Assembly (NCBI GenBank): GCA_036443455.1
Contig: JAZFYI010000077.1
Span: forward strand, 1 to 53,523
Length of the DNA stretch: 53,523 bases
From: Gammaproteobacteria bacterium
Lineage (GTDB): Bacteria > Pseudomonadota > Gammaproteobacteria > Steroidobacterales > MnTg04
Direction of reading: 5' to 3'
Part shown: piece by piece, positions 4,979 through 36,292 of the stretch
Position numbering within the stretch: position 1 is the stretch's first letter
How the letters are laid out: every line of letters begins with the position of its first letter
Made by a program: the position numbers and the translations under genes
Notes under the pieces: model-generated
What the model saw: only the letters and a program-made list of their open reading frames with translations
Told to the model about the DNA's origin: nothing
Databases searched by the model: none

Positions 4979-5692
4979 TCAGGCCGCCACAAAACTCTTG
5001 GCGATGCTTTCCTGGATGCTCTCGGCAGCGGCTCGCGGGTTGTCCGCGTCGCGTATGGGGCGACCAATAACGATATAGTCCGCGCCATTGGCAAAAGCCT
5101 GTTCTACACTGACCACCCGTTTCTGGTCATCCGCCGGGCGATTGTCAAGCGGACGAATGCCTGGAACGACAACCAACAGCCGCTGGTCGATGAATTCTCT
5201 GAGCCGTGGCGCTTCAAGGCCTGATGAAACCACGCCATCGCAGCCGGCCTCGAGCGCTCTGCGCGCCCTCGATAGCACCAGGTCCTCAACATCGCAGCTA
5301 AATCCCAGGTCATCCAGATCACCACGATCGAGGCTGGTCAACACCGTGACGCCAAGGATTTTGACATCTCCCTTGGCCTCGGCCGCGGCCTCCATGATCG
5401 ACTGGTTCCCATGTACCGTCGTAAAAGTAATACCGCGGTTGTTCAGGCGCCGGACGGCTGCGGCCACCGTTGCCGGGACGTCAAAAAACTTGAGATCGAC
5501 GAAAACCTGTTTGTCCCGCGCCACCAGCCAGTCCAGCAACTCGAAATAACCGCCCGCCATCATCAGCTCAAGACCGAGCTTGTAAAACTTCACCGAGTCG
5601 CCCAATTCGATTGCCAGCGAGCGTGCCCGTTCGGCGTCGGGAACATCCATCGCAAATATCAGCCGCTGTTCGGGGGGAATTCCGTCACTCAT
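4979..5692 (-). CDS. pyrF: Orotidine 5'-phosphate decarboxylase
   Basis: Start at ATG 5692 ([17 protein letters not shown]...). Motifs [21 protein letters not shown] and DYIVIGRPI are present. Confidence 0.9.
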
Positions 5693-6245: not shown

Positions 6246-7408
6246 CGTTCATCTCCCGGCTCAATCAGCCGCTGGTATTCACCGAGCGCAAACCGGTCCG
6301 TCATCCCGGCGATATAGTCCGCGACCGCTCGCGCGCGTGTCTCCTCCGCAGCGCCTTCGCTAACGGGCCCAAACCGATCAGACAGCAAATCCGGTCGCGA
6401 CATGTAGCATGAAAACAGGCTGCGCATGATGCGATCCGCTTTATCGGTCATTCGCCTCACCCGTTCATGACTGTACAACGTCTGGCGCAAAAAGCGCTTC
6501 AATTCGCGATGCGCCTTGCCGACCCCTGCGCTCATATCCAGCATCGATTTTCCGTGCCGGCGAACATCGTCTATAGACGCCGGCGACACACGATCGAGTT
6601 CCCTGCGGGTGTTTTCGATCAGGTCGCAGACCACATGGTTGATCATGCAGCGAACGGTTTCGTGAATGACCGTTCGCTCGATCAGCTCAGGATACTTTGC
6701 CACCACTTCCTGGTAACAGGTGTTGAATATTTCGAGTTCGCATAGTTGCTCGATACTGATCATCCCGGCCCTCAACCCGTCATCGACATCGTGGTTGTTA
6801 TAGGCAATTTCGTCCGCGAGATTGGCCAGTTGCGCCTCCAGGCCGGGCTGTTGCCTGTTGAGAAACCGCTCTCCCAGCTCGCCGAGCTCCCGGGCGTTGC
6901 GCCTGGAGCAGTGTTTGAGTATTCCTTCCCGGGTTTCAAAACACAGGTTCAGCCCGGGAAACTCGGCGTATTTTTCCTCCAGCTTGTCCACGACGCGCAG
7001 CGACTGCAGGTTGTGCTCGAACCCGCCATGCTCCTGCATACAATCGTTCAGCGCTTCCTGTCCGGCGTGGCCAAAGGGCGTGTGTCCGAGGTCGTGCGCC
7101 AGACATATCGCCTCGGTCAGATGCTCATTGAGCCCCAGGGCAACGGCGACGGAGCGGCCGATCTGGGACACCTCTAGTGAATGCGTCAGGCGCGTGCGGT
7201 ACATATCGCCTTCGTGATTGACGAACACCTGGGTCTTGTACATCAGGCGCCTGAAAGCGCCACAGTGAATTATGCGGTCGCGGTCACGTTGAAATTCCGA
7301 GCGCGGATGAGCCGGCGGTTCCGGGTACAAACGGCCGCGGCTTTCGTCATCATGGGCTGCCCATGGCGCGAGCACAGACCCGGAAGCCAGGCTCGGCATC
7401 AGCGACAA
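6242..7408 (-). CDS. dgt: dGTP triphosphohydrolase-like HD-domain protein
   Basis: FQRDRDRIIHC.AFRRL..KTQVF......YRTRLTHSLEV.QI.R and HDLGHTPFGH.G are HD/dGTPase family signatures. Confidence 0.85.
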   Translation of the reverse strand: MSLMPSLASGSVLAPWAAHDDESRGRLYPEPPAHPRSEFQRDRDRIIHCGAFRRLMYKTQVFVNHEGDMYRTRLTHSLEVSQIGRSVAVALGLNEHLTEAICLAHDLGHTPFGHAGQEALNDCMQEHGGFEHNLQSLRVVDKLEEKYAEFPGLNLCFETREGILKHCSRRNARELGELGERFLNRQQPGLEAQLANLADEIAYNNHDVDDGLRAGMISIEQLCELEIFNTCYQEVVAKYPELIERTVIHETVRCMINHVVCDLIENTRRELDRVSPASIDDVRRHGKSMLDMSAGVGKAHRELKRFLRQTLYSHERVRRMTDKADRIMRSLFSCYMSRPDLLSDRFGPVSEGAAEETRARAVADYIAGMTDRFALGEYQRLIEPGDER

Positions 7409-8472
7409 TACTCGCGCATCACAGATTCGGGCAAGGCGGGATCAAAACTGTCGCAAAGCACGACGCTGCCCGGTTCTTCGGGCAAAACCAGCGTCAGCTT
7501 TCCGGATAAAACCTTTTTGTCCATGGTCATTTTTTCTGCCAGCTTGCCCGGATCCAGCCCTTCGACACAGGTCGGCAGCCCGCACTGCTCGTTGAGACTA
7601 CGGATTCGCTGGACCAGTTCCGCGTCTGCCAGGCCCATACGCACGGCTACCTCGGCCGCCAGCAGCAAGCCCACCGCCACCGCCTCGCCATGCAAATACC
7701 GATAATCCGACTCGGCCTCGATCGCGTGGGCAAAACTATGACCGAGATTCAATAAGGCGCGTGATCCGGATTCTTTTTCGTCCGCCGCCACGATTCGAGC
7801 CTTGATCTGGCAGGTCGTTTCTATCGCGTGGGTCAACGCTTGCCGATCGCGCAGCAGCACGTCGCCGGCGTGACTTTCGAGCCAGCCAAAAAAAGCTTCG
7901 TCCGCGATCAGCGCTGATTTCACAATCTCGGCCATCCCGGCTCTCATCTGCCGGTCATCGAGCGTATCCAGCGTCGCGACATCGGCAACCACGCCGATCG
8001 GCTGGTGAAAAGCACCGACCAGGTTTTTTCCACCGGCGTGGTTGATCGCAGTCTTGCCACCGATCGCTGCATCTGCCTGGGCAAGCAAGGTGGTCGGACA
8101 AATAATATGGGCGATGCCTCGCTGGTAACAGGCAGCGGCAAAACCCGCGATATCCGAAACGACGCCACCGCCCAGCGATACGATCGTGGCGTCCCGATGC
8201 ATACCCGAATCAACCAGTCGATCCAGCAGCAGCGAAAAATATTCCAGGTTCTTGAATCGCTCACCATCGGGGAGCTCATATTTAGAGATCTCAAACGCCC
8301 CCAGCGCTTTCTCCACGGCAGCCGCGTGCAGAGGGCCGACGGTTTCGTTGCTAACCAGGAAAACCTGCTTCCCCGGTACCATGCCCGCGAGCAGAGCTGA
8401 GTCACTGAGCAGGCGGCGCCCAATATGGACGGGGTAGGAACCGCTGGCCACATTGACCGTCACTGTTTTCAC
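7399..8472 (-). CDS. aroB: 3-dehydroquinate synthase
   Basis: Full-length AroB similarity (GGGVV.D..GF.AA.YQRG, LNLGH.FAHA.E). Confidence 0.95.
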   Translation of the reverse strand: MKTVTVNVASGSYPVHIGRRLLSDSALLAGMVPGKQVFLVSNETVGPLHAAAVEKALGAFEISKYELPDGERFKNLEYFSLLLDRLVDSGMHRDATIVSLGGGVVSDIAGFAAACYQRGIAHIICPTTLLAQADAAIGGKTAINHAGGKNLVGAFHQPIGVVADVATLDTLDDRQMRAGMAEIVKSALIADEAFFGWLESHAGDVLLRDRQALTHAIETTCQIKARIVAADEKESGSRALLNLGHSFAHAIEAESDYRYLHGEAVAVGLLLAAEVAVRMGLADAELVQRIRSLNEQCGLPTCVEGLDPGKLAEKMTMDKKVLSGKLTLVLPEEPGSVVLCDSFDPALPESVMREYCR

Positions 8473-8479
8473 TGCCGCA

Positions 8480-9025
8480 TCACCTGTCGCCCTTGACCCA
8501 GTTTACGATTTCAGCGGCAACCGCCGGTACTTTCCGGCCATTCGTATTGATTGTCAGATCGGCTATATTCTCGTACATCGGCTCTCTTTGCCCGGCGAGT
8601 TTCGCCAGCGCTTTTTCGGGGCTGTCGTCATCCAGCAAGGGCCTGTTGGCAACCAGCCTGGTACGCCTGAGCTGTTGCGTGACACTCACGCGCAGATAAA
8701 CCACTCGTCCCCTTTGCGACAGCCTGCTCCTGTTCTGCGGATCGAGCACCGCACCACCGCCGGTGGCCAATACGATGGATGGCAGTTGCGTCAGCCGGTC
8801 GATCGCCTCCGCCTCGCGCTGGCGAAAACCGCTTTCTCCTTCTTTTTCGAATATGAATCCAATATCGACGCCGGTCTGTTTCTGTATCTCGAGATCGGTA
8901 TCGTAAAACGGCACACCCAGTGCCTTGCCGAGCCGCCGCCCGACCGCGGTTTTTCCGGCGCCCATCGGGCCAACCAGGAATATGCTCGCGCGACTGCTTT
9001 TTTCGTCGCCTGGACTCATTGCCAC
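8480..9025 (-). CDS. aroK: Shikimate kinase
   Basis: IFLVGPMGAGKT..GR.LA..L...F.D.D..IE..TG is the P-loop shikimate kinase pattern. Confidence 0.95.
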   Translation of the reverse strand: MAMSPGDEKSSRASIFLVGPMGAGKTAVGRRLGKALGVPFYDTDLEIQKQTGVDIGFIFEKEGESGFRQREAEAIDRLTQLPSIVLATGGGAVLDPQNRSRLSQRGRVVYLRVSVTQQLRRTRLVANRPLLDDDSPEKALAKLAGQREPMYENIADLTINTNGRKVPAVAAEIVNWVKGDR

Positions 9026-9120: not shown

Positions 9121-10425
9121 TCAAAAACTGTAGCGAGCACGCGCAAAAATATTGCTGTTGTCCTCGAGTTGCCCAAAAAACGTGTATGGCTTGCTGCCGC
9201 CAAACAGGTTGGCGCCGCCGATGAAACTCCAGGCATCGTTCATCCGGTAACGGACCTGGGGCCGCAGGTGGTAATCACTGTCACTCGGGGAGACGAACAC
9301 AAACAGCGAATGCTGCCACCGGTCACGCGCATCGTGGTAGTTCAGGCGCGTGGTCAGCAAAGTACGCAGTTGCTCTGCCTCAAACTGCGGGGTGAGCGAG
9401 TTTTGCAACAAGCGTCCATGGTGCGATGTCCACTCGCCATATAGCTGCAAGCCAAGGCTCAGGCGGGCAACCAGCTCCCTTTCATAACCGAGCAACAAGC
9501 GCAGTTGTGAGTTGGGCAACAGCGGATCGTCACCCGAGCGATCGTCCCGGCTATCGTAAAAGGCAAATTCGAAGTTGGCGATACCCCCCCATGCCGGCCG
9601 GCGCAGGCTCGCACCATAGACGCTGAGCCTGGGGAAAAACAGCGTCTGCTGCGCAGTGACGCCCAGCGGCTGTTTCCAGAAACCGAAATAGACATAGGCC
9701 GCATATTCGACAGAGTTGGCCGTCTTGTACAAACGCGCGGCGAGCTCGCCATTGCCCAGGCTGCGCCCGGGCTTTTGCGCAACCAGCGGTGGATCGGGGG
9801 CAACGATGCCGCCTGCGAAAGCCGAGAAAAATGAGAATCGCTTGCCGTTCAGGAATCTATCGTCGGCGAAGACCGGTGTCCAGGCCAGGTCTATATTGAT
9901 AGCCTTGCCGAACACGCTGGCACGCACGGTGTTTGACGGCGCTTTCAGGTACTCATCATCACGACCGGTAAAAAAGGAAACGAAATCCTTTGGAAACAGG
10001 TCATTCAGGAACAGGAAGTCGCCGGTACCCCAGGTCAGCACCTGCCGGCCAATCTTGATATCCACGTTGGCGGCTGGCGCAAACACCAACGCCAGCTCAC
10101 GAACATTGGCATCCAGCGCAGCTTCTACATCGTCAGCATAAATATCGGCTTTTAGCGCCAGCGACCACCGCTCACGGACAAGCTCCGTCTCGCCGCGAAA
10201 CCTGGTTTCGGCCAGAGTCGTACGCCGTCCAACGGCAGAATCGCTCTGCAAACGGCTCCCGAAACCCGCCTCGACAAAGCCATGGAATGGCATGTCCTCC
10301 ACTGTTTCCTCGCCCCAGTCGTCATCCCAATCGTCTTCGACGACGCCCTGGTCCTCGGCGAGCAGCGCGGGCGAGAAAAACAACAGCAGTACGATCAGGC
10401 GCAATTTCAAGCCGCTAGCCCGCAT
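9121..10425 (-). CDS. Putative outer-membrane beta-barrel protein (alginate-export/DUF1302-like porin)
   Basis: It has a signal peptide (MRASGLKLRLIVLLLFFSPALLA), an acidic linker, a KIGRQVLTWGTGDF motif, alternating beta-strand patterning and a C-terminal ...ARARYSF beta-signal. Confidence 0.65.
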   Translation of the reverse strand: MRASGLKLRLIVLLLFFSPALLAEDQGVVEDDWDDDWGEETVEDMPFHGFVEAGFGSRLQSDSAVGRRTTLAETRFRGETELVRERWSLALKADIYADDVEAALDANVRELALVFAPAANVDIKIGRQVLTWGTGDFLFLNDLFPKDFVSFFTGRDDEYLKAPSNTVRASVFGKAINIDLAWTPVFADDRFLNGKRFSFFSAFAGGIVAPDPPLVAQKPGRSLGNGELAARLYKTANSVEYAAYVYFGFWKQPLGVTAQQTLFFPRLSVYGASLRRPAWGGIANFEFAFYDSRDDRSGDDPLLPNSQLRLLLGYERELVARLSLGLQLYGEWTSHHGRLLQNSLTPQFEAEQLRTLLTTRLNYHDARDRWQHSLFVFVSPSDSDYHLRPQVRYRMNDAWSFIGGANLFGGSKPYTFFGQLEDNSNIFARARYSF

Positions 10426-10673
10426 ACTTCACCAAGGATCGCGGATTCTGGGTGAGGGCTCGGGCGGCTGAGGGCGGGTCTGGAGCGAAACCCATAGCGG
10501 TGGCTATGGGTTGAGTGAAGACCAAGCTCAGGCGTCCGAGAACCAGCCAGGGCCGCGATAGGTGGCCGCCGGCGCACAGACTGTAATCATCCATCAACGG
10601 ACCGATGCCTCATAATACCTGTACGTTCCTTACCTTAATTCCGGCGGCTACCGCCTTGGTGAAATATGCGGGC
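10418..10673 (-). repeat. 20-bp inverted repeats (19/20) flanking 216 bp and closing a three-way junction; the left arm covers the SD and ATG of the OMP gene
   Basis: 10418-10437 GCCCGCATACTTCACCAAGG pairs with 10654-10673 CCTTGGTGAAATATGCGGGC. Nested helices are 10438-10444/10553-10559 (7 bp) and 10561-10572/10641-10652 (12 bp). An internal hairpin lies at 10489-10512. Confidence 0.6.
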
Positions 10674-10695
10674 CAACTCCATGCAATGGCTGTGG

Positions 10696-11508
10696 CTATC
10701 CGGATGGCCGTTTCAGCCATTGGCGTGGCGGATTACGCAGCGAGCGTTCGCTGAAAACCTCCTGGGGCAGTCCCAGGTCAAAGTGGCTATAACGAAATTC
10801 CAGCAGCGTATGGCCACCGCCTTGCAAATCGTCCATTTTCGAACGAATGACCGTTGGATGCCCCTGGATCGATTTGACTTCGAGAACTTCCATACGCCGG
10901 TAAATTTCGCCGATCTCGTTGATATATTCGATTTTCATTGGCAGAAAGGTCTGCTTGTCCACCCACACGGTGTAGCTTTTGAATTCTACCGTGGCCGGAT
11001 TTTTTGGCGTGTTCTCCAGCACGTAGGACTGAGCGTCGCTGCCTGTCAGCACGTGGTGATCGTCATTCGGATTACGTCCGGAAACGTCTTCGTAAAAAAA
11101 ATGCGCGCCGACAAAACTGGTCCGCTTGTCGCCGGCCGATATACGTTTCACCAGGTCCAGGCCCGGCAGGTACAGCCAGCGATCGTCATCGCCGTCGATG
11201 TGCTTTGCCACCTGGAAAACCATGCCGCGCACATCGGCAGGGCGGCTGAAGAACACCATGAAATCCTGATCGCCGCCGTCTTCGCGGTCACGCCTGAGAA
11301 TCGTAAATTGCCGCAGTTGTTCACGGCCCTGCCCATCCCTGATTCGCATACGTGCGTCGCTGCGCCCATCGTCGCCGGCATAATAGGCGGCAAGATTGGC
11401 TCGCCGGATAATTTCAGCCGCATCGGTGAGATCCGCCGCAAGGGAAAATACGGGTACTCCCAGCAGCGCCAGCGCCAGGCTTGCAGCGAGTCCAGCTTGC
11501 ATATTCAA
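10696..11508 (-). CDS. Outer-membrane lipoprotein-sorting (LolA-like) protein
   Basis: It has a signal peptide (MNMQAGLAASLALALLGVPVFSLA). ...RMRIRDGQGREQLRQFTILRRD......DQDFMVFFSRPADVRGMVFQV...DDDRWLYLPGL..VKRIS is typical of the LolA-like family that accompanies COG1033 RND exporters. Confidence 0.7.
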   Translation of the reverse strand: MNMQAGLAASLALALLGVPVFSLAADLTDAAEIIRRANLAAYYAGDDGRSDARMRIRDGQGREQLRQFTILRRDREDGGDQDFMVFFSRPADVRGMVFQVAKHIDGDDDRWLYLPGLDLVKRISAGDKRTSFVGAHFFYEDVSGRNPNDDHHVLTGSDAQSYVLENTPKNPATVEFKSYTVWVDKQTFLPMKIEYINEIGEIYRRMEVLEVKSIQGHPTVIRSKMDDLQGGGHTLLEFRYSHFDLGLPQEVFSERSLRNPPRQWLKRPSG

Positions 11509-14108
11509 CCTCCTGAGTGCGATTGCTTTGCACCAACGGAACAGTGTGACTCGGGCAACAAGCGGCCGCGCAGGATGCTTAACATCGCCGGCAGCAAAAC
11601 CAGGGTGACGATCGCCGACACGGCCATGATTCCCGCCAGGAATGCGCCGACCGTTACATACGGCAGCAACGGCGCGAGCAGCAGCGGCGTAAAGCCGATG
11701 GCGACGACAACGGTGTTGCGCGTGATCGCCCGTGCCGGCTCTTCGAACATTCGCTTCATCGTCGATGCAAACGAACCGGTTTCGCGGTGAATTGCCCGTG
11801 CGCGCTCGAGGAAGTGAATCGCGAAATCCACCGACAAGCCAAGGGTCAGCGCCGAAAGCACGGCGATCGGCATGTCATAGTCCTTGCCGATCCAGCCGAT
11901 CAGGCCATAAATCAGCGTGATCGTGATAGTCAGCGGCAACATGGCGAGCACGCCGTAGAAAAACGATCGAAACAGTACGATCATCATGATCAGCACCACG
12001 ACGAAAGCGCCCAGCAGGCTTTTGGCCATGCCCGCCACCATCGCGTCCTGCCAGACGACATTGATATAGGTCTTGCCGGCCCATCTCCTGCTCAGCTCCG
12101 CTGGCAACGGGTGGTCTGCCAGGTATGCATCGAGCTGCGCCATCACCTCGCTCATGTCCTGGTTATCGCCGCTGCGCAATTGCAGCCAGATAACCGCGGA
12201 GCGGTAATCCGGCGTGACCATGTGCCAAAGGTCGTGCGGGCGATGGGAGGACTGATAGACCAGCAGAGTCTGGGCGATCCCGGCCGTAGTGGCCGGGATC
12301 GCAAAATCCGCCGCCATGCCGCTGTGCAATTCGCGGTTGACGGTCTTGAGCAAATCCGGCAGCGCGTTGGTCTTGCCTACATGAGCACTGTCGGCAAGCA
12401 CCCGCTGCAGGGTTTCGAGCAGCCGCACGGCCTCGGGTTGCTGGAAATACTTCGCCTGGCTTTGCGCGGCCTCGGCAGACGCAAGCAAGTCTTCAAGATA
12501 AGGAATTTCGGCGTCGCCGGCATCGAACAATGCATCGTCCAGCCCCGTGATCATGGCATCCAGCTGCTCACCAGGATCGTCCAAACCAGTCCTGGCCGCC
12601 GCATCCCACCCGATGGCATCCAGATCCACCCCATCGAGCCGTGCGCGAGCGAGAATTTTCTCTGCTTGCCCTGAAAACCGTCGGTAAGCATCCTGCCCGT
12701 GCTGCCGCAGCACCAGGAACGCATCGTAGGTGCCGGCAAAATGGCGGTTAAGCGCTTCATCTGCAACCCGGATGCGGTGATCCGACTTGAACCAGTTTAC
12801 CGGGTTGTCGTTGATCTGGATTCGGCTTACCCCGAGGATGCTTAGCCCGAAAACAACTGCAAAGGTAACCATCAGCTTCATGGCATTGGCCGTCGAAAAC
12901 CGGCCAAGCGTTGGCAACAGGCGCGATAACATACCGGGCTTATCCTCCGCCCGGGATGATTTTTGCAACGCTCTTAGCTGGGCCGGGCTCATGCACACGA
13001 CGTAGGCAGGGACAAAAACGATGGTCAGCAGAAACGCGAGCATGATGCCAAAGCCCACGAAAATGCCAAAAACCTGCACGGGTGGAATCGGCGTTATCGC
13101 CAGCGACAGGAACCCTATGGTCGAGGTAACCGAGGTAAACAACATGGGCCGGAACAAGTGGCTGACGACTTGCCGGATCGTCACCCCGACATCGTCACCC
13201 TCCTGAAAAGTGTCAGCGAACTCCGACAGGATGTGAACTGAATCCACCACCGCGATAGGCATCAGGAAAATCGGGATCATCGAACTCATGATGTGGACGG
13301 TATAGCCCATCCCGATCATCAGGCCCATGGCGCAGATGACGGTCGCCATCGCAACGATCATCGGCGCTACCACCAGCGCGGCGTTGCGGAAGAAAAACCA
13401 CATCAGGAGGAAAATAGCCAGCCCCGCCAGCGGCGCCGATATTCCCATCTGGACGAACATTTCGTAGCCGAAGGTGTCCTCGGCCACCGGCAGACCGGTA
13501 ATGTGGTAACTGTCGGTTGCGCCGCTCCCGGCGAGCGACCGCTCGATAATCTGATCGATCTCGCGGGAGATCCGGTAGCTTTGGTCCTTGCTGACAATCG
13601 GCACATAAATCGCAGCCGCCTTGCCATCGCCGGACACCAGTGTATTCATCAGCAAGGGCAAACGTTCCACCGCCGCACGTATCGCCAGCGCCTGCTTCCC
13701 GGTCTGCGGTGCCTCGTGCATCAGCCATTCGAAACTGATCGCGCCCGCACCATCCTGGCTGACATTATCGACCACCGACAGTGACATCAGGTCATGGCGC
13801 ACTACCCCATCGATCTTGAGGATCTCCTGACTGACGCGATGGATCGCCGCCAGCGAACGGACGTTGTAAATGCCCTCCGGATCGTCATCGTTGACCGCGC
13901 CAACCACGATCGCGTCGGCAAGACCGAACTCTTTCTTGGTTTGGTTGTGAAATGCGCGATCGGGCTGCCCCTCCGGGAGCATGTTCTCGGGGTCTGTATC
14001 GATCCTGATCGATGGAATCTGCAGGCCCAGCCCCAGCGTCAAAAGGGCGACAAACAGATAGATCGTCCGGGGTCTCGAGGTGGCCAGATTGGCAATCCTG
14101 TGAGTCAT
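11505..14108 (-). CDS. RND-superfamily exporter (MMPL/COG1033 type, two 6-TM bundles)
   Basis: 867 aa. The N-terminal TM is followed by ...IRIDTDPENMLP. There are two hydrophobic blocks with large soluble loops. It overlaps the downstream LolA-like gene by 4 nt. Confidence 0.85.
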   Translation of the reverse strand: MTHRIANLATSRPRTIYLFVALLTLGLGLQIPSIRIDTDPENMLPEGQPDRAFHNQTKKEFGLADAIVVGAVNDDDPEGIYNVRSLAAIHRVSQEILKIDGVVRHDLMSLSVVDNVSQDGAGAISFEWLMHEAPQTGKQALAIRAAVERLPLLMNTLVSGDGKAAAIYVPIVSKDQSYRISREIDQIIERSLAGSGATDSYHITGLPVAEDTFGYEMFVQMGISAPLAGLAIFLLMWFFFRNAALVVAPMIVAMATVICAMGLMIGMGYTVHIMSSMIPIFLMPIAVVDSVHILSEFADTFQEGDDVGVTIRQVVSHLFRPMLFTSVTSTIGFLSLAITPIPPVQVFGIFVGFGIMLAFLLTIVFVPAYVVCMSPAQLRALQKSSRAEDKPGMLSRLLPTLGRFSTANAMKLMVTFAVVFGLSILGVSRIQINDNPVNWFKSDHRIRVADEALNRHFAGTYDAFLVLRQHGQDAYRRFSGQAEKILARARLDGVDLDAIGWDAAARTGLDDPGEQLDAMITGLDDALFDAGDAEIPYLEDLLASAEAAQSQAKYFQQPEAVRLLETLQRVLADSAHVGKTNALPDLLKTVNRELHSGMAADFAIPATTAGIAQTLLVYQSSHRPHDLWHMVTPDYRSAVIWLQLRSGDNQDMSEVMAQLDAYLADHPLPAELSRRWAGKTYINVVWQDAMVAGMAKSLLGAFVVVLIMMIVLFRSFFYGVLAMLPLTITITLIYGLIGWIGKDYDMPIAVLSALTLGLSVDFAIHFLERARAIHRETGSFASTMKRMFEEPARAITRNTVVVAIGFTPLLLAPLLPYVTVGAFLAGIMAVSAIVTLVLLPAMLSILRGRLLPESHCSVGAKQSHSGG

Positions 14109-14131
14109 CGCCGGCAGCGGGCTGAGCCCGG

Positions 14132-15019
14132 CTAAAACCGGTCCAGCGGAAGTTTGAGATAACGGGTACCGTCGTCTTCAGGTTCCGGCAATGCGCCCGC
14201 GCGGATATTGACCTGGATCGATGGAAGAATCAGCGCCGGCATATTGAGCCGGGCGTCCCTGGTGTTGCGCATCTTTACAAACTGGTCGACGCTGCTGGAC
14301 TCGTTGACATGAATATTGTGTTTTTTCTGCTCTCCGATCGTGGTCATGCAACTCTGTTCACGGCCGGCCGGTGGATAATCATGGCAAAGATACAGGCGCG
14401 TTTCGTCTGGCAATTCATAAATCCTCTGGATGGACCGGTAGAGGAGGCGGGCATCGCCCCCGGGGAAATCGCAGCGCGCAGTGCCGAAGTCCGGCATGAA
14501 CATCGTGTCGCCAACAAAAGCGGCATCGCCGAACACATAAGTCACGCTGTCGTTGGTATGTCCGGGTGTGTGCATGACCCGGCCAGGGACGCTTCCGATC
14601 CGGATCTCCTCGTTGTCACGGAACAAATGGTCAAACTGGCTCCCGTCCGGCCGGAAATGGTCAGCAAGGTTGAAAACTTTCGCAAAGGTTTTCTGTACCG
14701 TCGTGATTCCCTCACCAATTCCTATTTTTGCACCGAGCTTGCCGCGCAGGTACATAGCGGCGCTCAGGTGATCGGCATGCGCATGAGTCTCGAGGATCCA
14801 CTCCGCCTGGTACTCGTTTTCGTCCAGCCAGGCGATGAGACGATCAGCCGATTCGGTACCGGTACGACCGGACCTGCAATCGAAATCGAGCACTGAATCG
14901 ATAATGGCGGCCTGTCGCGAATCGGGGTCAGCCGCCACATGGCTGATTGTCGATGTCGCCTGGTGGAAAAAGCTTGCTACCTGAATCTGCATTTTCGCCG
15001 CCTGTGCGTCCTGGTCCAC
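14132..15019 (-). CDS. MBL-fold metallo-hydrolase, persulfide-dioxygenase/glyoxalase II-like
   Basis: ETHAHADHLSAA (HxHxDH), HTPGHT and FPGGDARLLYRSIQRI..LPDETRLYLCHDY are present. The GTG start at 15019 has GGGAGAG upstream. An alternative ATG lies at 14992 (MQIQVASFF...). Confidence 0.8.
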   Translation of the reverse strand: MDQDAQAAKMQIQVASFFHQATSTISHVAADPDSRQAAIIDSVLDFDCRSGRTGTESADRLIAWLDENEYQAEWILETHAHADHLSAAMYLRGKLGAKIGIGEGITTVQKTFAKVFNLADHFRPDGSQFDHLFRDNEEIRIGSVPGRVMHTPGHTNDSVTYVFGDAAFVGDTMFMPDFGTARCDFPGGDARLLYRSIQRIYELPDETRLYLCHDYPPAGREQSCMTTIGEQKKHNIHVNESSSVDQFVKMRNTRDARLNMPALILPSIQVNIRAGALPEPEDDGTRYLKLPLDRF

Positions 15020-15149: not shown

Positions 15150-17318
15150 TCAGTAGGCGCTGCTACCGTCTCGAAGAATCTTCGGCGTGATAAATATCAG
15201 CAACTCCGATTTGTTGGATTCGTTTACCGTTGACTTGAACAGGCGACCGATGATCGGGATATCCCCAAGAATCGGCACCTGGTTGATCACTTCGCGGTTT
15301 TCGGTCTCGTATATACCACCAAGAACAACGGTCTCGCCATCGTTGACCAGGACCTGCGTTATCACCTCGCGAGTATCGATACTCGGGACAAATCCGCCGG
15401 TCGCGCTGGCCACGCTTTCACCCACGCTGTCCTGGTTAACCTGGAGATCCATGATAATCCGGTCATCAGGGGTGATCTGCGGTGTTACCAGCAGTCTCAA
15501 TACAGCTTTCTTGAACTGGGTCGTTGTCGCGCCACTGGACGATGATTCCTGGAAGGGAATCTCGACACCTTGTTCGATGCTGGCTTGCTTCTGATTGGCG
15601 GTTACTACGCGCGGCGTGGAAATGATTTCGCCGCGTCCTTCCGCCTGCAACGCGGATAACTCGAGATCGACAATAAAATCGTTGTCCAGGATTGCCAGCG
15701 CCACTTTGCCAGCCGGGTTGATGACCGGCAGATTGACATTAAAGCGATCGGTGATCGACGGCGCTTCAACCGGGAAGGGTTGCCCGGTGTTCTGGATATT
15801 ATCCAGCGCGGAATCGACTATCGTTCCGGAACCCGATGCGCTGCCTGTGGTCGTAAACAGACCGCCACTGCCAAAATCGTCTACATAGGTCACGCCAAAG
15901 CGTGCGCCCAGTTCCTTGCTGTAGTCGTCATTAACGGTGACGATGCGCGCTTCGATCAAAACCTGGCGAATCGGAATATCGAGTATCGCCACCATTCTTC
16001 GAATGTCGGCTAACCGTTCCTCGGTATCCTGCACCAGCAAGGTGTTGGTTCTCGCGTCTACCGCAACGCTGCCACGCTCCGAGAGCAGGGAATTCTCGGC
16101 GCTGGATCTCATCAGTTCAGCAAGATCGTTGGCCTTGGCATAGTTGACCTGTACGAATTCCGCACGCAGCGGTTCAAGCTCCTGGCGCTGTGCGTAGGTT
16201 TCCAGTTCCTGGCGTTCGCGCGCGGCGATCTCGTCCGCCGGCGCAATCAGGATCACGTTGCCCTGTTGACGCATATCCAGGCCCTTGGTGCGCAATACGA
16301 TATCCAGCGCCTGGTCCCACGGAACATTCTGCAAACGCAGCGTAACGCTGCCTGCTACGGTGTCGCTGACCACCATGTTCAGGCCGCTTGTATCGGCGAG
16401 CAACTGCAGCACCGCACGGGTTTCGATGTCCTGGAAGTTCAGCGACATACGCTCGCCGACATATTCTTTTTCAATCTCGGGAGTAAAAGCCTTGTCTTTT
16501 TCGGGAGCCTTGCTGATCTCGACGGTAAAGACGTTGTCAGACTGGTAGGCCACTTCTTCGAAATCACCCATGGCGGCAATAATCAGCCTCGTGTTGTTGC
16601 CGACTCTGAGCGTATCCACCGATGAAACCGGCGTTGCGAAATCCATCACGTCCATGCGACGGAGCAGACTGTCAGGCAGGCTGGCGCCTTGAAAATCGAC
16701 CAGGACCAGGTTGCCTTGCTGACGCAAATCTATAGCTGTGCTGGGGTCGCTCAGGGTCACCATAATGCGACCCGCACCATCCGGGCTACGACGAAAATCG
16801 ATACTTTCAATTCTGGCCGCACTCCGCGACTGGCTGCCTGGTCTTGAACTGCCGGCAAAACTTGCGGCCTGGCCCGCGCTTCCTGCAACGCCGAGAAGAA
16901 TGACAATACTGTTGCCGGAAACGCGTGTCTCGTATGGCACGAGTACATCCATATTCAGGACGACCCGGGTGCGACCGCCGGCTTCGGCGGTGACCACGGA
17001 ATTGAGCGGTCCGATCCCAACATTGGTGCGCCGCCGGTCCATATTCAGGCTGGTGCCCGGCAGATCCAGTGCAATACGCGCCGGGTCGTTGATCGTAAAG
17101 CTTAGCGGCTCGGGCGCGGCGCCACTCAGTCGCAGCTCAAGCTGCACTTGCTGGCCAGGCAAAGTAACAACCTTGATATCTTCCAGCTGAATAGTGCTTT
17201 GCGCCGCTGCAGGCAGAGCCAACAAACAGACCAGCGCGGCACCTATCCATTTGCCAACGTAGCGTCCCAATCCATTGCCACCGTGTAAATCACGTCCTGG
17301 CAGATTCATGAACTTCAT
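15150..17318 (-). CDS. pilQ: Type IV pilus secretin PilQ
   Basis: N-terminal AMIN repeats are followed by a secretin domain (...PILGDIPIIGRLF....N....ELLIFITPKI). Confidence 0.95.
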   Translation of the reverse strand: MKFMNLPGRDLHGGNGLGRYVGKWIGAALVCLLALPAAAQSTIQLEDIKVVTLPGQQVQLELRLSGAAPEPLSFTINDPARIALDLPGTSLNMDRRRTNVGIGPLNSVVTAEAGGRTRVVLNMDVLVPYETRVSGNSIVILLGVAGSAGQAASFAGSSRPGSQSRSAARIESIDFRRSPDGAGRIMVTLSDPSTAIDLRQQGNLVLVDFQGASLPDSLLRRMDVMDFATPVSSVDTLRVGNNTRLIIAAMGDFEEVAYQSDNVFTVEISKAPEKDKAFTPEIEKEYVGERMSLNFQDIETRAVLQLLADTSGLNMVVSDTVAGSVTLRLQNVPWDQALDIVLRTKGLDMRQQGNVILIAPADEIAARERQELETYAQRQELEPLRAEFVQVNYAKANDLAELMRSSAENSLLSERGSVAVDARTNTLLVQDTEERLADIRRMVAILDIPIRQVLIEARIVTVNDDYSKELGARFGVTYVDDFGSGGLFTTTGSASGSGTIVDSALDNIQNTGQPFPVEAPSITDRFNVNLPVINPAGKVALAILDNDFIVDLELSALQAEGRGEIISTPRVVTANQKQASIEQGVEIPFQESSSSGATTTQFKKAVLRLLVTPQITPDDRIIMDLQVNQDSVGESVASATGGFVPSIDTREVITQVLVNDGETVVLGGIYETENREVINQVPILGDIPIIGRLFKSTVNESNKSELLIFITPKILRDGSSAY

Positions 17319-34210: not shown

Positions 34211-36292
34211 GTGGCCAATAAACCCATTGATCTGACATCCGTGCAACGGCTGCATGGCGTTGGCCCGCATCTCGCCGCCCGCCTGGAAAAACTGGGCATC
34301 CGCTCTGTGCAGGATTTGCTGTTTCTGCTGCCGCTGCGCTACGAGGATCGCACGCAAATTGTTCCCATCGGAGGTTTGCGCCCGGGCCAACGCGCCGTTG
34401 TGGAAGGTGAAATCCAGCTAACCGAGGTGGTCTATCGGGGTCGCAGGAACCTGCTTTGCCGAATCAGCGATGGCACCGGCGGCCTGACCCTGCGGTTTTT
34501 TCACTTTTCGAGAGCCCAGCAGGATGGCCTCGCCCGCGGCAAGCGCATCCGCTGTTTTGGCGAGACGCGGCCAGGCACGGGCGGCCTGCAGATGATCCAT
34601 CCCGAGTATCGACTGCTCGGTGACACCGATTTGGCGATCGATGACACGCTGACCCCGGTTTATCCGGGCACCGAAGGGCTGCAGCAGGGCAGGTTGAGAA
34701 ACCTGGCCAGGCAGGCGCTGGGCCTGGTCGCCGCCGGTGAACTCGAGGAATGGCTGCCCGCCCGAATTCTGGAGGCGATGAAATTTCCCGGTTTGCTGGC
34801 GGCGCTGACCCTGCTTCATCAACCGCCGGCCGATACCGATTTGCAGTCGATGCAACAGGGGAGACACCCGGCGCAGCGGAGGATGGCGTTTGAAGAACTA
34901 CTGGCACAGCATCTGAGCCTGCGCAGATTGCGTCGTAAAATCCGCAGCGAACCGGCGGCGGCGCTGGTGGACCCGGGAACGGCGGTTGCCGATTTCATTG
35001 CCTCCTTGTCCTACACGCTCACGGGCGCACAGCGACGGGTCATTGCGGAACTGCTCGAGGACCTGGCAAAAGAAAAGCCGATGATGCGCCTGGTGCAGGG
35101 CGATGTCGGATCGGGCAAGACCGTGGTCGCCGCGGTGGCGACCGTCTGTGCCGCTGCCTGCGGCAGGCAGTCCGCGATCATGGCGCCAACCGAACTGCTC
35201 GCCGAACAGCACGCCGAAAACTTTCGCCAGTGGCTCGAACCCATGGGGCTGGAAACCGGGCTGCTGACCGGCAGGATCAAGGGCAAGACACGACAACAAT
35301 TGCTGGCAAGAATAGCGGACGGCCAGGTGCGAATCGTCGTGGGCACCCACGCCCTTTTTCAGGAAAGCGTCGCCTTCGATCGCCTTGCGCTGATCGTTGT
35401 CGATGAACAGCATCGCTTCGGCGTACATCAACGGCTCGCGCTAAGGGAAAAAGGCGGCCGCGAGGGCCATTGCCCGCACCAGTTGATCATGACCGCCACC
35501 CCCATACCCAGGACCCTGGCGATGACGGCCTATGCCGATCTCGATGTATCGGTGATCGACGAATTACCGCCCGGGCGCAGACCGGTGACCACGGTTGCCA
35601 TGCCCGAGTCGAGGCGGCACGAGTTGCTGAGCAGTATCCGGGACGCATGTTTGTCCGGCCGCCAGGCGTACTGGGTATGCCCCCTGATCGAGGAATCCGA
35701 TGTGCTGAACTACGAGGCGGCGGAGAAAACGGCCACGATGCTGGCGGAGGCGTTGCCCGAATTGTCGCTCGGCCTGGTTCACGGGCGTATGAAATCGAAG
35801 GACAAGCATCGGGTGATGCAGGCTTTCAAAAAAGGCGAGCTTCACCTGTTGGTTGCGACGACGGTCATCGAAGTCGGAGTCGATGTCCCGAACGCCAGCA
35901 TGATGATCATCGAAAATGCAGAGCGCATGGGGCTGGCGCAACTGCATCAGTTGCGCGGCAGGGTCGGCAGGGGCAGCGAGCAAAGCAGTTGCCTGCTGCT
36001 GTACAAACCCCCGCTGACCGCTTTGGCAAGACAGCGCCTCGCGGTACTTCGGCAAACCAGTGACGGGTTCAAAGTCGCCCAGGCCGATCTCGATCTGCGC
36101 GGACCGGGCGAATTGCTGGGCACGCGGCAGACCGGGTTGATGCAGATGCGCATCGCCGACCTGATGCGCGATGCCGACCTGTTGCCCGAGGTACACAAGA
36201 CAGCGACATTCATGCTGAAGGAACACCCGGTTGCGGTCGATGGCCTGATTCGCCGCTGGGTTGGCGAAGCCGATCGCTTTGGCAAGGTCTGA
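34211..36292 (+). CDS. recG: ATP-dependent DNA helicase RecG
   Basis: A wedge domain is followed by the SF2 helicase motifs (GDVGSGKT, DEQHRFGV, MTATPIPRTL, QLHQLRGRVGRG). Confidence 0.95.
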   Translation: MANKPIDLTSVQRLHGVGPHLAARLEKLGIRSVQDLLFLLPLRYEDRTQIVPIGGLRPGQRAVVEGEIQLTEVVYRGRRNLLCRISDGTGGLTLRFFHFSRAQQDGLARGKRIRCFGETRPGTGGLQMIHPEYRLLGDTDLAIDDTLTPVYPGTEGLQQGRLRNLARQALGLVAAGELEEWLPARILEAMKFPGLLAALTLLHQPPADTDLQSMQQGRHPAQRRMAFEELLAQHLSLRRLRRKIRSEPAAALVDPGTAVADFIASLSYTLTGAQRRVIAELLEDLAKEKPMMRLVQGDVGSGKTVVAAVATVCAAACGRQSAIMAPTELLAEQHAENFRQWLEPMGLETGLLTGRIKGKTRQQLLARIADGQVRIVVGTHALFQESVAFDRLALIVVDEQHRFGVHQRLALREKGGREGHCPHQLIMTATPIPRTLAMTAYADLDVSVIDELPPGRRPVTTVAMPESRRHELLSSIRDACLSGRQAYWVCPLIEESDVLNYEAAEKTATMLAEALPELSLGLVHGRMKSKDKHRVMQAFKKGELHLLVATTVIEVGVDVPNASMMIIENAERMGLAQLHQLRGRVGRGSEQSSCLLLYKPPLTALARQRLAVLRQTSDGFKVAQADLDLRGPGELLGTRQTGLMQMRIADLMRDADLLPEVHKTATFMLKEHPVAVDGLIRRWVGEADRFGKV

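Follow-up and report, generated by a model that had tools for sequence, protein, structure and literature searches.

A gap of 270 nt separates the genes for a LolA-like protein and an outer-membrane protein (OMP) in the RND cluster of the window, that is, the whole stretch of gammaproteobacterial DNA analysed here (53,523 nucleotides), as was confirmed by the LolA-like stop codon at 10696-10698 and the annotated OMP ATG at 10425. The gap is nearly filled by a 256-bp structured element at 10418-10673, which raises the question of whether this element evolved to control the OMP gene or reached the operon by other means. A previous sequence-only reading proposed a cis-regulatory RNA, an invertible promoter switch and, as its least favoured option, a MITE-like insertion. 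It was this last option that was borne out by empty sites in relatives, 127 further loci with the same end sequence, TA/YTAR flanks and full-length copies at unrelated loci. The segment 10418-10673 is very probably a 256-bp non-autonomous transposable element (MITE) with 20-bp terminal inverted repeats (TIRs), inserted at a TA in the 23-nt spacer between the LolA-like and DUF1302 OMP genes; it is an ordinary kind of mobile DNA and not a purpose-built regulatory RNA.

The element is bounded by a left TIR at 10418..10437 on the plus strand (GCCCGCATACTTCACCAAGG) and a right TIR at 10654..10673 on the minus strand (GCCCGCATATTTCACCAAGG, read on that strand), which form an inverted repeat with 19 of 20 positions complementary. 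By our own arithmetic, the chance expectation for such a repeat within about 300 nt is roughly 2.5e-6; its extension to 37 nt is weak, the added part matching at about 10 of 17 positions, which is the chance level. The single mismatch (10427/10664) is C:A in plus sense and G:U in minus sense, just as it had been described, and the operon-sense RNA is predicted to form a 20-bp perfect-plus-wobble duplex. The internal repeats and the hairpin that had been reported are likewise all present. A long imperfect hairpin domain (10438..10559, plus strand) rises from a base helix at 10438-10444 / 10553-10559 (7/7 paired) to an apex hairpin at 10489-10512 (arms 10489-10498 / 10503-10512, 10/10), which holds the family-invariant palindrome CATAGC-N4-GCTATG. 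A right internal domain (10561..10652, plus strand) is closed by a 12-bp helix (10561-10572 / 10641-10652, 11/12) around a variable, AT-richer loop whose sequence is poorly conserved among copies, and the direct repeat GGNTGAGGGC occurs at 10450 and 10466. As expected of a MITE, the element is small and carries neither a transposase nor other coding capacity, with no meaningful ORF inside its 256 bp and only spurious overlapping ORFs of at most 60 aa. Both BLAST and a TIR search allowing three mismatches found this copy only in the 53.5-kb window. A 19/20 match between 10666-10685 and 34251-34270 sits inside recG and was treated as chance.

Alignment with close relatives shows the window to carry a clean 256-bp insertion at a TA. 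Locus L001 is collinear with the window over 7.3 kb at 94-97% nucleotide identity, and locus L003 encodes a LolA-like protein 97% identical to that of the window; at the position of the element, both have only a 23-nt spacer, which holds a native GGAG Shine-Dalgarno (SD) sequence, TA and a native ATG. Their junction is ...GGAGT-TA-GCAGC-ATGAAA..., with a single TA, and that of the window, in minus sense, is GGAGT-TG-(256 bp)-TA-GCGGC-TTGAAA. The element is likewise absent from locus L002 (81%). Both an empty site in a relative and a target-site duplication, which are hallmarks of a MITE, are thus found: the left copy of the duplicated dinucleotide is the TA at 10416..10417, and alignment to the empty sites places a degenerate right copy at 10674..10675, where the relatives have TA. 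This right-hand copy reads CA in the window, which calls for the assumption of one substitution. The insertion is considered recent because the element is absent at about 95% nucleotide identity.

The OMP gene (9121..10425, minus strand; Pfam DUF1302) is intact and is called from a transposon-borne ATG, and the cistron upstream of the insertion is the LolA-like gene (10696..11508, minus strand; PF17131), whose orthologues are 97%, 88% and 81% identical. On the minus strand, the left TIR presents an outward-facing GGTGA (10433-10429), a 3-nt spacer and an ATG (10425-10423), after which the arm holds only 5 nt (CGGGC) and not 7 nt of the OMP gene, as had been stated. Judging from the empty sites, this GGTGA and ATG are part of the transposon's terminal repeat and not of the ancestral OMP start region. 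The claim that the outer stem buries the ribosome-binding site and start codon therefore holds for the predicted start and fails for a start belonging to the OMP gene itself, the buried one being carried by the transposon. The native SD (GGAG, 10677..10680, minus strand) has ended up beyond the element, at a distance of about 265 nt upstream from the ancestral start codon position (10408..10410, minus strand), which is ATG in relatives and TTG here. This TTG (10410-10408) lies 15 nt, or five codons, downstream of the repeat-borne ATG and in frame with it, and the BLASTP alignment of the OMP begins at window residue 6, the counterpart of residue 1 in the L001 orthologue; the two proteins are 98% identical, with 28 synonymous and 8 non-synonymous codon differences.

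In the proposed mechanism, the insertion would have come between the native GGAG and the native start codon, with the latter since changed to TTG, and the operon mRNA would now carry a very stable 256-nt structure. The sole remaining SD-like start would be the in-frame GGTGA-N3-ATG of the terminal repeat, sequestered in the 20-bp stem, and initiation at its ATG would add MRASG to the OMP signal peptide. Because the native SD is split from the start and the remaining SD-like start is sequestered in the stem, OMP translation is probably lowered, or uncoupled from the upstream cistron. Additionally, by analogy with the Correia elements of Neisseria, the long duplex is a plausible RNase III substrate. 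In the family as a whole, no enrichment of terminal-repeat ATGs in frame with downstream genes was found (frame 0, 31 cases; frame 1, 36; frame 2, 5), frame 2 being depleted because GGC-TAG and GGC-TAA create a stop; use of the repeat-borne ATG at this locus is therefore without statistical support.

Searches of other genomes show that the element shares both its ends and its interior with a multi-copy family that is spread over many Gammaproteobacteria. The exact 20-mer of the left end (GCCCGCATAYTTCACCAAGG) was matched at 57 loci in genome_contigs, where about 2 would be expected by chance according to our own arithmetic, and at 70 loci in metagenome_contigs, giving the 127 other loci. These loci come from many Gammaproteobacteria; their ends bound non-coding elements, and in most complete cases the partner repeat is 100-342 bp distant. 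Several genomes have many copies, including nine loci in one Alteromonadaceae MAG, six in Ca. Azophilus and five in Thioalkalivibrio denitrificans, and some copies are located at contig ends, as expected of repeats that break assemblies. The interior is 88% identical to that of the window element at locus L049, 87% at L044, 86% at L107, 80% at L023 and 72% at L004, and loci L116 and L013 have internal homologues with indels. At least seven full-length internal homologues have unrelated genes around them and occur in either orientation to these neighbours (between maf and rng, between era and recO, inside an ABC transporter operon and upstream of cutA-dsbD), which is the dispersal by which a MITE is recognised. 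In the plasmid collection, the whole-element query had no match and a 36-nt end probe gave chance matches only (E of at least 1), and the terminal repeat was not found in viral_contigs. In the JGI metagenomes, the terminal-repeat pattern was matched and the subfamily-specific internal pattern was not. A full-text literature search with the terminal-repeat sequence returned no paper. This MITE family is apparently undescribed; it is widespread in marine, saline and sediment Gammaproteobacteria, and its ends and core are unusually well conserved.

Over 203 ends, the flank was T in 86%, A in 83% and a purine in 92% (G 65%, A 27%), TAG being found at 105 and TAA at 42 of these ends, and TA flanked 96 of 135 exact terminal repeats. 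This composition shows the family to target YTAR, mostly CTAG, and, as read from the flanks, to duplicate TA. TA insertion, a 2-bp TA duplication and the CTAG/NTAN preference, all characteristic of IS630/Tc1-mariner elements, are found by flank composition; the IS427-group elements of the IS5 family likewise duplicate TA in CTAG, and because of this shared habit the assignment to IS630 is non-exclusive. IS630 itself is described as duplicating TA and preferring TA within CTAG (PMC2170065 and the title of Tenzen and Ohtsubo 1991, cited there). A parent IS was sought among the ORFs inward of solo ends, long-range end pairs and contig-end sequence, which yielded housekeeping genes, solo ends and further MITEs only; the 1.75-kb end pair at locus L033 encloses an ordinary 445-aa gene. 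Neither the fetched loci nor the plasmid collection yielded an autonomous parent IS, or a transposase, with matching ends, and the transposase family is therefore deduced from the TA/YTAR target only. A trans-supplied DDE transposase of the IS630/Tc1-mariner type would bind the terminal repeats and move the element by cut-and-paste, with an IS5/IS427-type enzyme of the same TA/CTAG habit as a possible alternative.

The closed three-helix junction that had been described was recovered by the minimum-free-energy fold on both strands. The minus-sense RNA folds at -143.3 kcal/mol (z -6.7) and the plus-sense RNA at -156.2 kcal/mol (z -8.5), and none of 100 shuffled sequences folded equally well on either strand. 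Covariation of the helices, which the sequence-only reading had suggested looking for in homologous sequences, was found among the dispersed copies: 94.9% of the cells of the family alignment are paired, and in 17 of 72 pairs both partners have changed, where shuffles gave 5.1 +/- 1.7 and sliding the partners no more than 5, although these counts are inflated by related copies and the alignment between subfamilies is uncertain. Compensatory changes affect 10 of the 28 pairs of helix 2, in the long hairpin domain (eight subfamily copies), and 5 of the 11 pairs of helix 6, in the right internal domain. Many double changes have left the long hairpin of the subfamilies in place: UA (20 copies) alternates with GC (14) at columns 96/155, and GC (20) with CG (15) at columns 99/152. 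The three-way fold with compensatory changes is a family trait. With respect to strand, the consensus of the family reaches a lower folding energy when read antisense to the OMP operon (-81.9 vs -62.4 kcal/mol), and the inner helices favour the plus sense of the window (35 G:U vs 8 A:C cells, much of this signal coming from inherited positions). In the outer stem, transitions point clearly to neither strand if the unpaired first base is included.

Like the element, bacterial MITEs already described carry terminal repeats, duplicate their target, end in TA and form long stable stem-loops (PMC2229807). The Correia or NEMIS elements of Neisseria are likewise small and non-coding; at each terminus they have a TA, which represents the target duplication, and their terminal repeats measure about 24 bp. 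They lie beside or between genes with which they are co-transcribed (PMC2229807), as is predicted for the window element. Their transcript forms a long end-to-end hairpin, for which RNase III cleavage and altered expression of neighbouring genes have been proposed (PMC2229807). However, they have no sequence similarity to the window element and are simple hairpins of 107-155 bp with an IHF site and promoter-like ends, whereas the window element has 256 bp, a three-way junction, an invariant CATAGC-N4-GCTATG apex and a home in environmental Gammaproteobacteria. RUP, the repeat unit of pneumococcus, is also a MITE that inserts at TA, and its movement is attributed to the trans-acting transposase of an IS630-family element, IS630-Spn1 (PMC2229807), but it is 107 bp long with 9-bp terminal repeats that match a known IS, while no parent IS of the window family was found in the fetched loci and plasmids. 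IS630 and ISY100, of the Tc1-mariner superfamily, share with the element TIRs, cut-and-paste insertion into TA and the 2-bp TA duplication (PMC2170065); unlike it, they are autonomous, 1.0-1.2 kb long and transposase-encoding, the window element having no ORF. ERIC and the Caulobacter CIR elements likewise are repeats that lie between genes and are transcribed; their core inverted repeat is conserved, as is, phylogenetically, their secondary structure, and the CIR folds are multi-arm rather than single hairpins (PMC2229807). They differ from the window element in sequence, hosts and terminal repeats, those of ERIC being about 7 bp, and the CIR carry a GANTC methylation motif, which the window element lacks.

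That a riboswitch, RNA thermometer or processing site evolved here to gate OMP translation was suggested by the very stable fold, with its outer stem covering the predicted SD and ATG, and could draw on the helices preserved by compensatory changes among homologous copies. Such an origin is nevertheless very improbable: the element is missing from the same operon in relatives whose LolA-like proteins are 81-97% identical, its homologues lie in unrelated loci in both orientations and are accompanied by TA target duplications, and the consensus fold and the G:U cells favour the strand antisense to the operon. A curated cis-regulatory RNA would offer a family match and conservation at the orthologous position, and here the orthologous positions are empty. 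An Rfam scan of the region at a permissive E-value gave nothing reaching the gathering score (best element-overlapping matches, E 1.1-5.5) and no match at 12 other loci with copies, in keeping with the earlier remark that no known RNA family was recognisable. The 20-bp inverted repeats around a segment of roughly 216 bp upstream of a surface protein gene also recall an invertible promoter switch between recombinase-recognised repeats. In fact, the supposed promoter-bearing segment proved to contain no sigma-70-like promoter in a promoter scan, which returned one weak terminator-like site and otherwise neither terminator nor promoter, and the TATTAT at 10617-10612 lacks a usable -35 and shows no more than loose conservation. 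Neither recombinase nor transposase was detected among 19 window ORFs scanned against Pfam, as had been anticipated. Close relatives lack the element, and more than 120 unrelated loci have the same ends, flanked by TA; the repeats are ends of a transposon, bordered by a target-site duplication, and not recombinase sites retained among relatives, and inversion is a next to negligible explanation.

Among the readings that accept a MITE, it is possible, if doubtful, that the insertion has been exapted, so that the repeat-borne GGTGA-N3-ATG is the working OMP start and the 20-bp stem or its cleavage by RNase III determines how much OMP is made, whatever the output of the RND and LolA-like cistrons. 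The displaced native SD, the decay of the native ATG to TTG and the in-frame repeat-borne ATG are consistent with this, as is the ability of GGUGA to pair with UCACC of the 16S rRNA 3' tail, where the 3-nt spacer would correspond to a GGAGG spacing of roughly 6 nt. Other copies likewise bring the repeat-borne ATG into frame right where rng, recO and an ABC ATPase gene begin, and for Correia elements an action through RNase III has been reported (PMC2229807). On the other hand, the in-frame arrangement has a prior of one in three and is not enriched family-wide, TTG remains a usable start codon, and the intact OMP gene, which might be taken as a sign of function, says little on selection after insertion because the insertion is recent. 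It is quite unlikely that the MITE carries a functional structured RNA or protein-binding DNA module, such as a small RNA, a host-factor site or a transposition enhancer. Its apex palindrome is invariant in 35 copies of several subfamilies with differing flanks, its long hairpin has been kept through the double changes described above, and its G:U and A:C cells are asymmetric between strands. Yet the covariation counts and the between-subfamily alignment have the weaknesses already given, hairpin-templated repair of quasi-palindromes can mimic compensation, bacterial MITEs as a rule have structured interiors (PMC2229807), and both orientations relative to transcription occur. A broader proposal, which we regard as unlikely, is that the whole MITE family is adapted to operons and gene 5' ends, with a portable start that rescues destroyed native starts and a fold and apex that serve as a functional RNA or DNA module. 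Each terminal repeat does present an outward-facing, correctly spaced GGTGA-N3 and ATG, followed by an open CGG-GCT-A... frame across the TA. In other genomes, insertions have apparently destroyed the native starts of rng, recO, guaA and an ABC ATPase gene as well. The module might then be no filler but, for example, a signal for processing or insulation, or a site for a host factor.

For the window itself, the very probable identification of a MITE means that the apparent regulatory structure is a mobile-element scar and that two annotations, the OMP start at 10425 and a 374-aa ORF antisense to the LolA-like gene, both stem from transposon-end ATGs. The latter is spurious, begins at an outward-facing ATG of the right TIR (10666-10668, plus strand) and has no Pfam match. 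Genomes with this MITE family can likewise be expected to have N-termini of the MRA(S/N/K)... type that are mis-extended or newly created, and assemblies that break at the repeats. No new class of mechanism is opened by this MITE. It does provide a clean, datable case of a MITE between the SD and the start codon in an envelope-transport operon, with the empty site kept in relatives, and therefore a convenient natural experiment for polarity and translational coupling.

The gap under study (10426-10695, 270 nt) is found within a minus-strand operon, between the genes for a LolA-like protein (PF17131; 10696-11508) and a DUF1302 outer-membrane protein (OMP; 9121-10425). Upstream of this pair, on the same strand, lie genes for the PilQ secretin (15150-17318), a metallo-beta-lactamase-fold (MBL) protein (14132-15019) and an RND/MMPL transporter (11505-14108), and downstream lie aroK (8480-9025) and aroB (7399-8472). 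The remaining scanned genes of the window are housekeeping ones (hemE, pilM, PBP1A, gltA, hemN, spoT, recG and uvrD), and none of the 19 window ORFs scanned against Pfam encodes a transposase or recombinase. The MBL/RND(MMPL)/LolA-like/DUF1302 cassette (9121-15019), also present in a relative's contig (L001), separates pilQ from aroK-aroB, which are usually neighbours in Gammaproteobacteria; another relative (L002) has the same RND-LolA-OMP-aroK block, but there an ArsR-type HTH gene takes the place of pilQ and the MBL gene ahead of it. The cassette may itself be an old insertion.

Re-reading of the sequence at 10418-10673 bore out the earlier description of this 256-bp element, and all of the repeats were recovered by a repeat finder: an outer terminal inverted repeat (TIR; 10418-10437/10654-10673, 19/20 complementary), a 7-bp helix (10438-10444/10553-10559), a 12-bp helix (10561-10572/10641-10652, 11/12), a perfect 10-bp hairpin (10489-10512) and a short direct repeat with copies at 10450 and 10466. 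The predicted closed three-way junction was also reproduced, with both strands of 10400-10700 folding into it. The operon-sense (minus) RNA reached -143.3 kcal/mol (z -6.7) and the plus-sense RNA -156.2 kcal/mol (z -8.5), with no shuffle matching native stability on either strand; the stronger predicted fold is thus antisense to the operon. The element matched no family in an Rfam scan, and an ORF check found no coding capacity inside it.

The origin of the element became apparent from three relatives' contigs (L001, L002 and L003), located through proteins related to the LolA-like product. In L001, the order pilQ-MBL-RND-LolA-OMP-aroK-aroB is the same as in the window, and the two sequences are collinear, the stretches flanking the element being 94.0% and 96.9% identical at the nucleotide level; however, the LolA-OMP spacer in L001 is only 23 nt long. 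It is equally short in L003, whose LolA-like protein is 97% identical, and in L002 (81% identical) the two genes overlap at the element's position. In operon sense, the relatives read TAG(stop)...CCTGGAGT-TA-GCAGC-ATGAAATTGCGC, whereas the window reads ...CATGGAGT-TG-[GCCCGCATATTTCACCAAGG ... CCTTGGTGAAGTATGCGGGC]-TA-GCGGC-TTGAAATTGCGC. Therefore, the 256 bp were inserted at a TA that had separated the native GGAG Shine-Dalgarno (SD) sequence from the native ATG. TA flanks the element on both sides, one copy now reading TG through mutation (plus-strand CA, 10674-10675). The native OMP ATG has become TTG in the window (10410-10408), and the ATG chosen by ORF callers (10425-10423) lies within the TIR of the insert, in frame and five codons upstream. 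The OMP is otherwise intact, with 421/430 residues identical to L001 in an alignment beginning at window residue 6, and 28 synonymous and 8 non-synonymous codon differences.

The TIR is widely dispersed. Exact scans for GCCCGCATAYTTCACCAAGG returned 57 loci in a one-genome-per-species collection (596 Gb), where by our arithmetic chance would account for about 2, as well as 70 in JGI metagenome contigs and none in viral contigs. The hosts are overwhelmingly Gammaproteobacteria, including Thioalkalivibrio denitrificans, T. sulfidiphilus and Ca. Azophilus, together with MAGs of Wenzhouxiangellaceae, Lysobacterales, Arenicellales, Pseudomonadales and Alteromonadaceae, and single genomes carry 5-9 or more matching loci. 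Many matches fall at contig ends with another copy lying inward, which is the usual sign of an assembly-breaking repeat. A real partial copy was also found in an alphaproteobacterial Shimia MAG (L050 288-465, nhmmer E 9e-20), suggesting horizontal transfer or bin contamination; the exact-end matches in Fimivivens, Hyphomicrobiales and Nanoarchaeia (L029, L042 and L059) are without TA flanks and look like chance. In most complete cases, an inverted partner repeat is found 100-342 bp away, defining size classes of about 126, 134, 163, 177-179, 244 (the commonest), 250-259 and 331-342 bp. TA directly adjoins the TIR on its outer side at 96 of 135 exact ends; across 203 ends with up to 3 mismatches, the successive outward positions are T (86%), A (83%) and then G (65%) or A (27%). 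Therefore, the target is YTAR, mostly CTAG, with TA duplication. IS630/Tc1-mariner elements have been described as behaving in this way: TA is both the insertion site of ISY100 and IS630 and the sequence that they duplicate, and IS630 favours TA within CTAG (PMC2170065).

Several copies are homologous to the element over its full length, interior included, namely L049 2071-2327 (257 bp, 88%), L044 6279-6535 (257 bp, 87%), L107 10098-10355 (258 bp, 86% over the aligned part), L023 784-1033 (250 bp, 80%) and L004 6804-7060 (257 bp, 72%). Another carries a 75-nt GC-rich nested insertion at 124-198 (L116 54-386), and another has lost the apex hairpin through an internal deletion of about 71 nt (L013 446-633); additional partial or diverged copies occur in L084, L050, L048, L079 and L061. 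Their gene neighbours vary: maf and rng (L044), era and recO (L107), substrate-binding protein and ABC ATPase genes (L004), the upstream region of cutA-dsbD (L023), and genes for a DinG-like helicase and a 1908-aa protein (L049). In six cases, the window included, the element lies antisense to the flanking transcription units, and in two it lies sense. An end-to-end, albeit weaker, alignment of the subfamily profile was also obtained with the 244-bp class and others; the size classes are therefore diverged relatives and not unrelated cargo carried by common ends. No Rfam family overlapped other copies in a scan of 12 loci carrying them.

Other arrangements were also observed. In Ca. Azophilus (OZ244830.1), two or more 244-bp members follow one another head to tail with a single TA common to both (L020 5102-5345 and 5348-5591), and a further end at 5594 suggests a longer array. 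Solo ends (about 24 nt, GCCCGCATATTTCACCAAGGCGGA) that give way to unrelated sequence (L083, L087, L089, L111, L121 and L128), as well as a half-element of about 70 nt directly 5' of an enolase gene (L061 1108-1177), look like decayed or truncated copies. In T. denitrificans, inverted family ends 1.75 kb apart (L033 701-2453) enclose an ordinary 445-aa gene and no transposase, which is a composite-transposon-like arrangement of two miniature non-autonomous transposons (MITEs). A 41-nt insertion adjoins the left end of the L078 copy. Within the window, the element's right end and flank (10666-10685) match 34251-34270, inside the recG ORF (34211-36292), at 19/20 positions (ATGCGGGCCAAC[T/G]CCATGCA; blastn-short E 0.003), probably by chance because no second TIR is found there.

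Stable stem-loop folds are the rule among bacterial MITEs (PMC2229807), and the fold of this family is conserved. RNAalifold on an 8-sequence subfamily alignment returned the same outer stem, long left hairpin with apex hairpin, and right helix, with 94.9% of cells paired on the consensus structure. Among few and mutually related copies, 17/72 pairs were changed on both sides, versus 5.1 +/- 1.7 in column shuffles (0/500 as high as observed) and no more than 5 when partners were slid by 1-3 columns, although hairpin-templated repair can mimic such compensatory changes. These pairs belong to the inner helices (10/28 in helix 2 and 5/11 in helix 6); the TIR stem varied on one side only, one repeat per copy being fixed by the search used to find the copies. 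Across 35 copies from several subfamilies, whose mutual alignment is uncertain, the long hairpin is preserved through many double changes. Its apex, CATAGC-N4-GCTATG (window 10492-10509; A3 columns about 118-133), is invariant in 35/35 copies while the surrounding sequence differs, and could constitute a protein-binding site or structural signal. The consensus fold is better in window plus sense (-81.9 versus -62.4 kcal/mol), where the inner helices hold 35 G:U versus 8 A:C cells, an excess that is partly inherited rather than independent.

The sequence-only reading had favoured a dedicated regulatory RNA or an inverton and had listed a MITE-like insertion third. Both favoured readings are contradicted by the empty sites in relatives and by the dispersed family; moreover, no sigma-70-like promoter was detected within the element, which the inverton idea had taken as a promoter-bearing segment. 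The third reading was right. The element is non-coding, bounded by 20-bp TIRs and a TA duplication and absent from close relatives, and it belongs to a family with many copies in many genomes; in these respects it behaves like a TA-targeting bacterial MITE. We infer that an IS630-type DDE transposase supplied in trans mobilises it; IS5/IS427-type enzymes share the CTAG/TA habit, and a search of the family loci examined and of the plasmid collection recovered no parent IS. RUP/IS630-Spn1 is the closest known system in behaviour and Correia/NEMIS the closest in predicted RNA consequences, while ERIC and CIR offer parallels for the conserved fold; however, none of them has sequence in common with the element, and a literature search for the TIR sequence found no paper containing it.

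As regards OMP translation, the insertion would have uncoupled the OMP cistron from its native SD and given the polycistronic mRNA a very stable 256-nt structure. The remaining SD-like start would be GGUGA (10433-10429) followed, after a 3-nt spacer, by AUG (10425-10423). GGUGA is complementary to UCACC in the 16S rRNA tail, and the spacer corresponds to one of about 6 nt behind a GGAGG. As had been proposed, this entire start is predicted to be buried within the 20-bp outer stem, but it is carried by a transposon. Its use would extend the signal peptide (MRASGLKLRLIVLLLFFSPALLA/EDQ), which remains plausible, by MRASG, and the TTG at 10410 is without an SD. On these grounds, reduced or uncoupled OMP translation would be expected. 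The duplex might possibly also be cleaved by RNase III, as proposed for Neisseria Correia elements (PMC2229807).

In other genomes, the TIR-borne ATG is likewise in frame and called as the start of rng (L044 6279-6298, where the element seems to lie inside the first codons), recO (L107 10098-10117), an ABC ATPase gene (L004 7041-7060), guaA, accC, proC and lpxB (the last four in L054, L005, L018 and L025), seeding N-termini of the MRA(N/S/K/R)... type. There is no family-wide enrichment of the ATG frame: among ORFs of at least 100 codons from the repeat, 31 use it and 36 use frame +1, frame +2 being low (5 ORFs) only because GGC-TAG or GGC-TAA forms a stop. The right-TIR ATG also opens a 374-aa plus-strand ORF (10666-11790), which overlaps the LolA-like and RND genes in antisense; it has no Pfam match and is apparently an artefact created by the transposon end. 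The value of the element lies in these annotation artefacts that it generates, in the unusually conserved ends and apex of its MITE family, and in the clean before/after pair that the window and its relatives provide for studying polarity.
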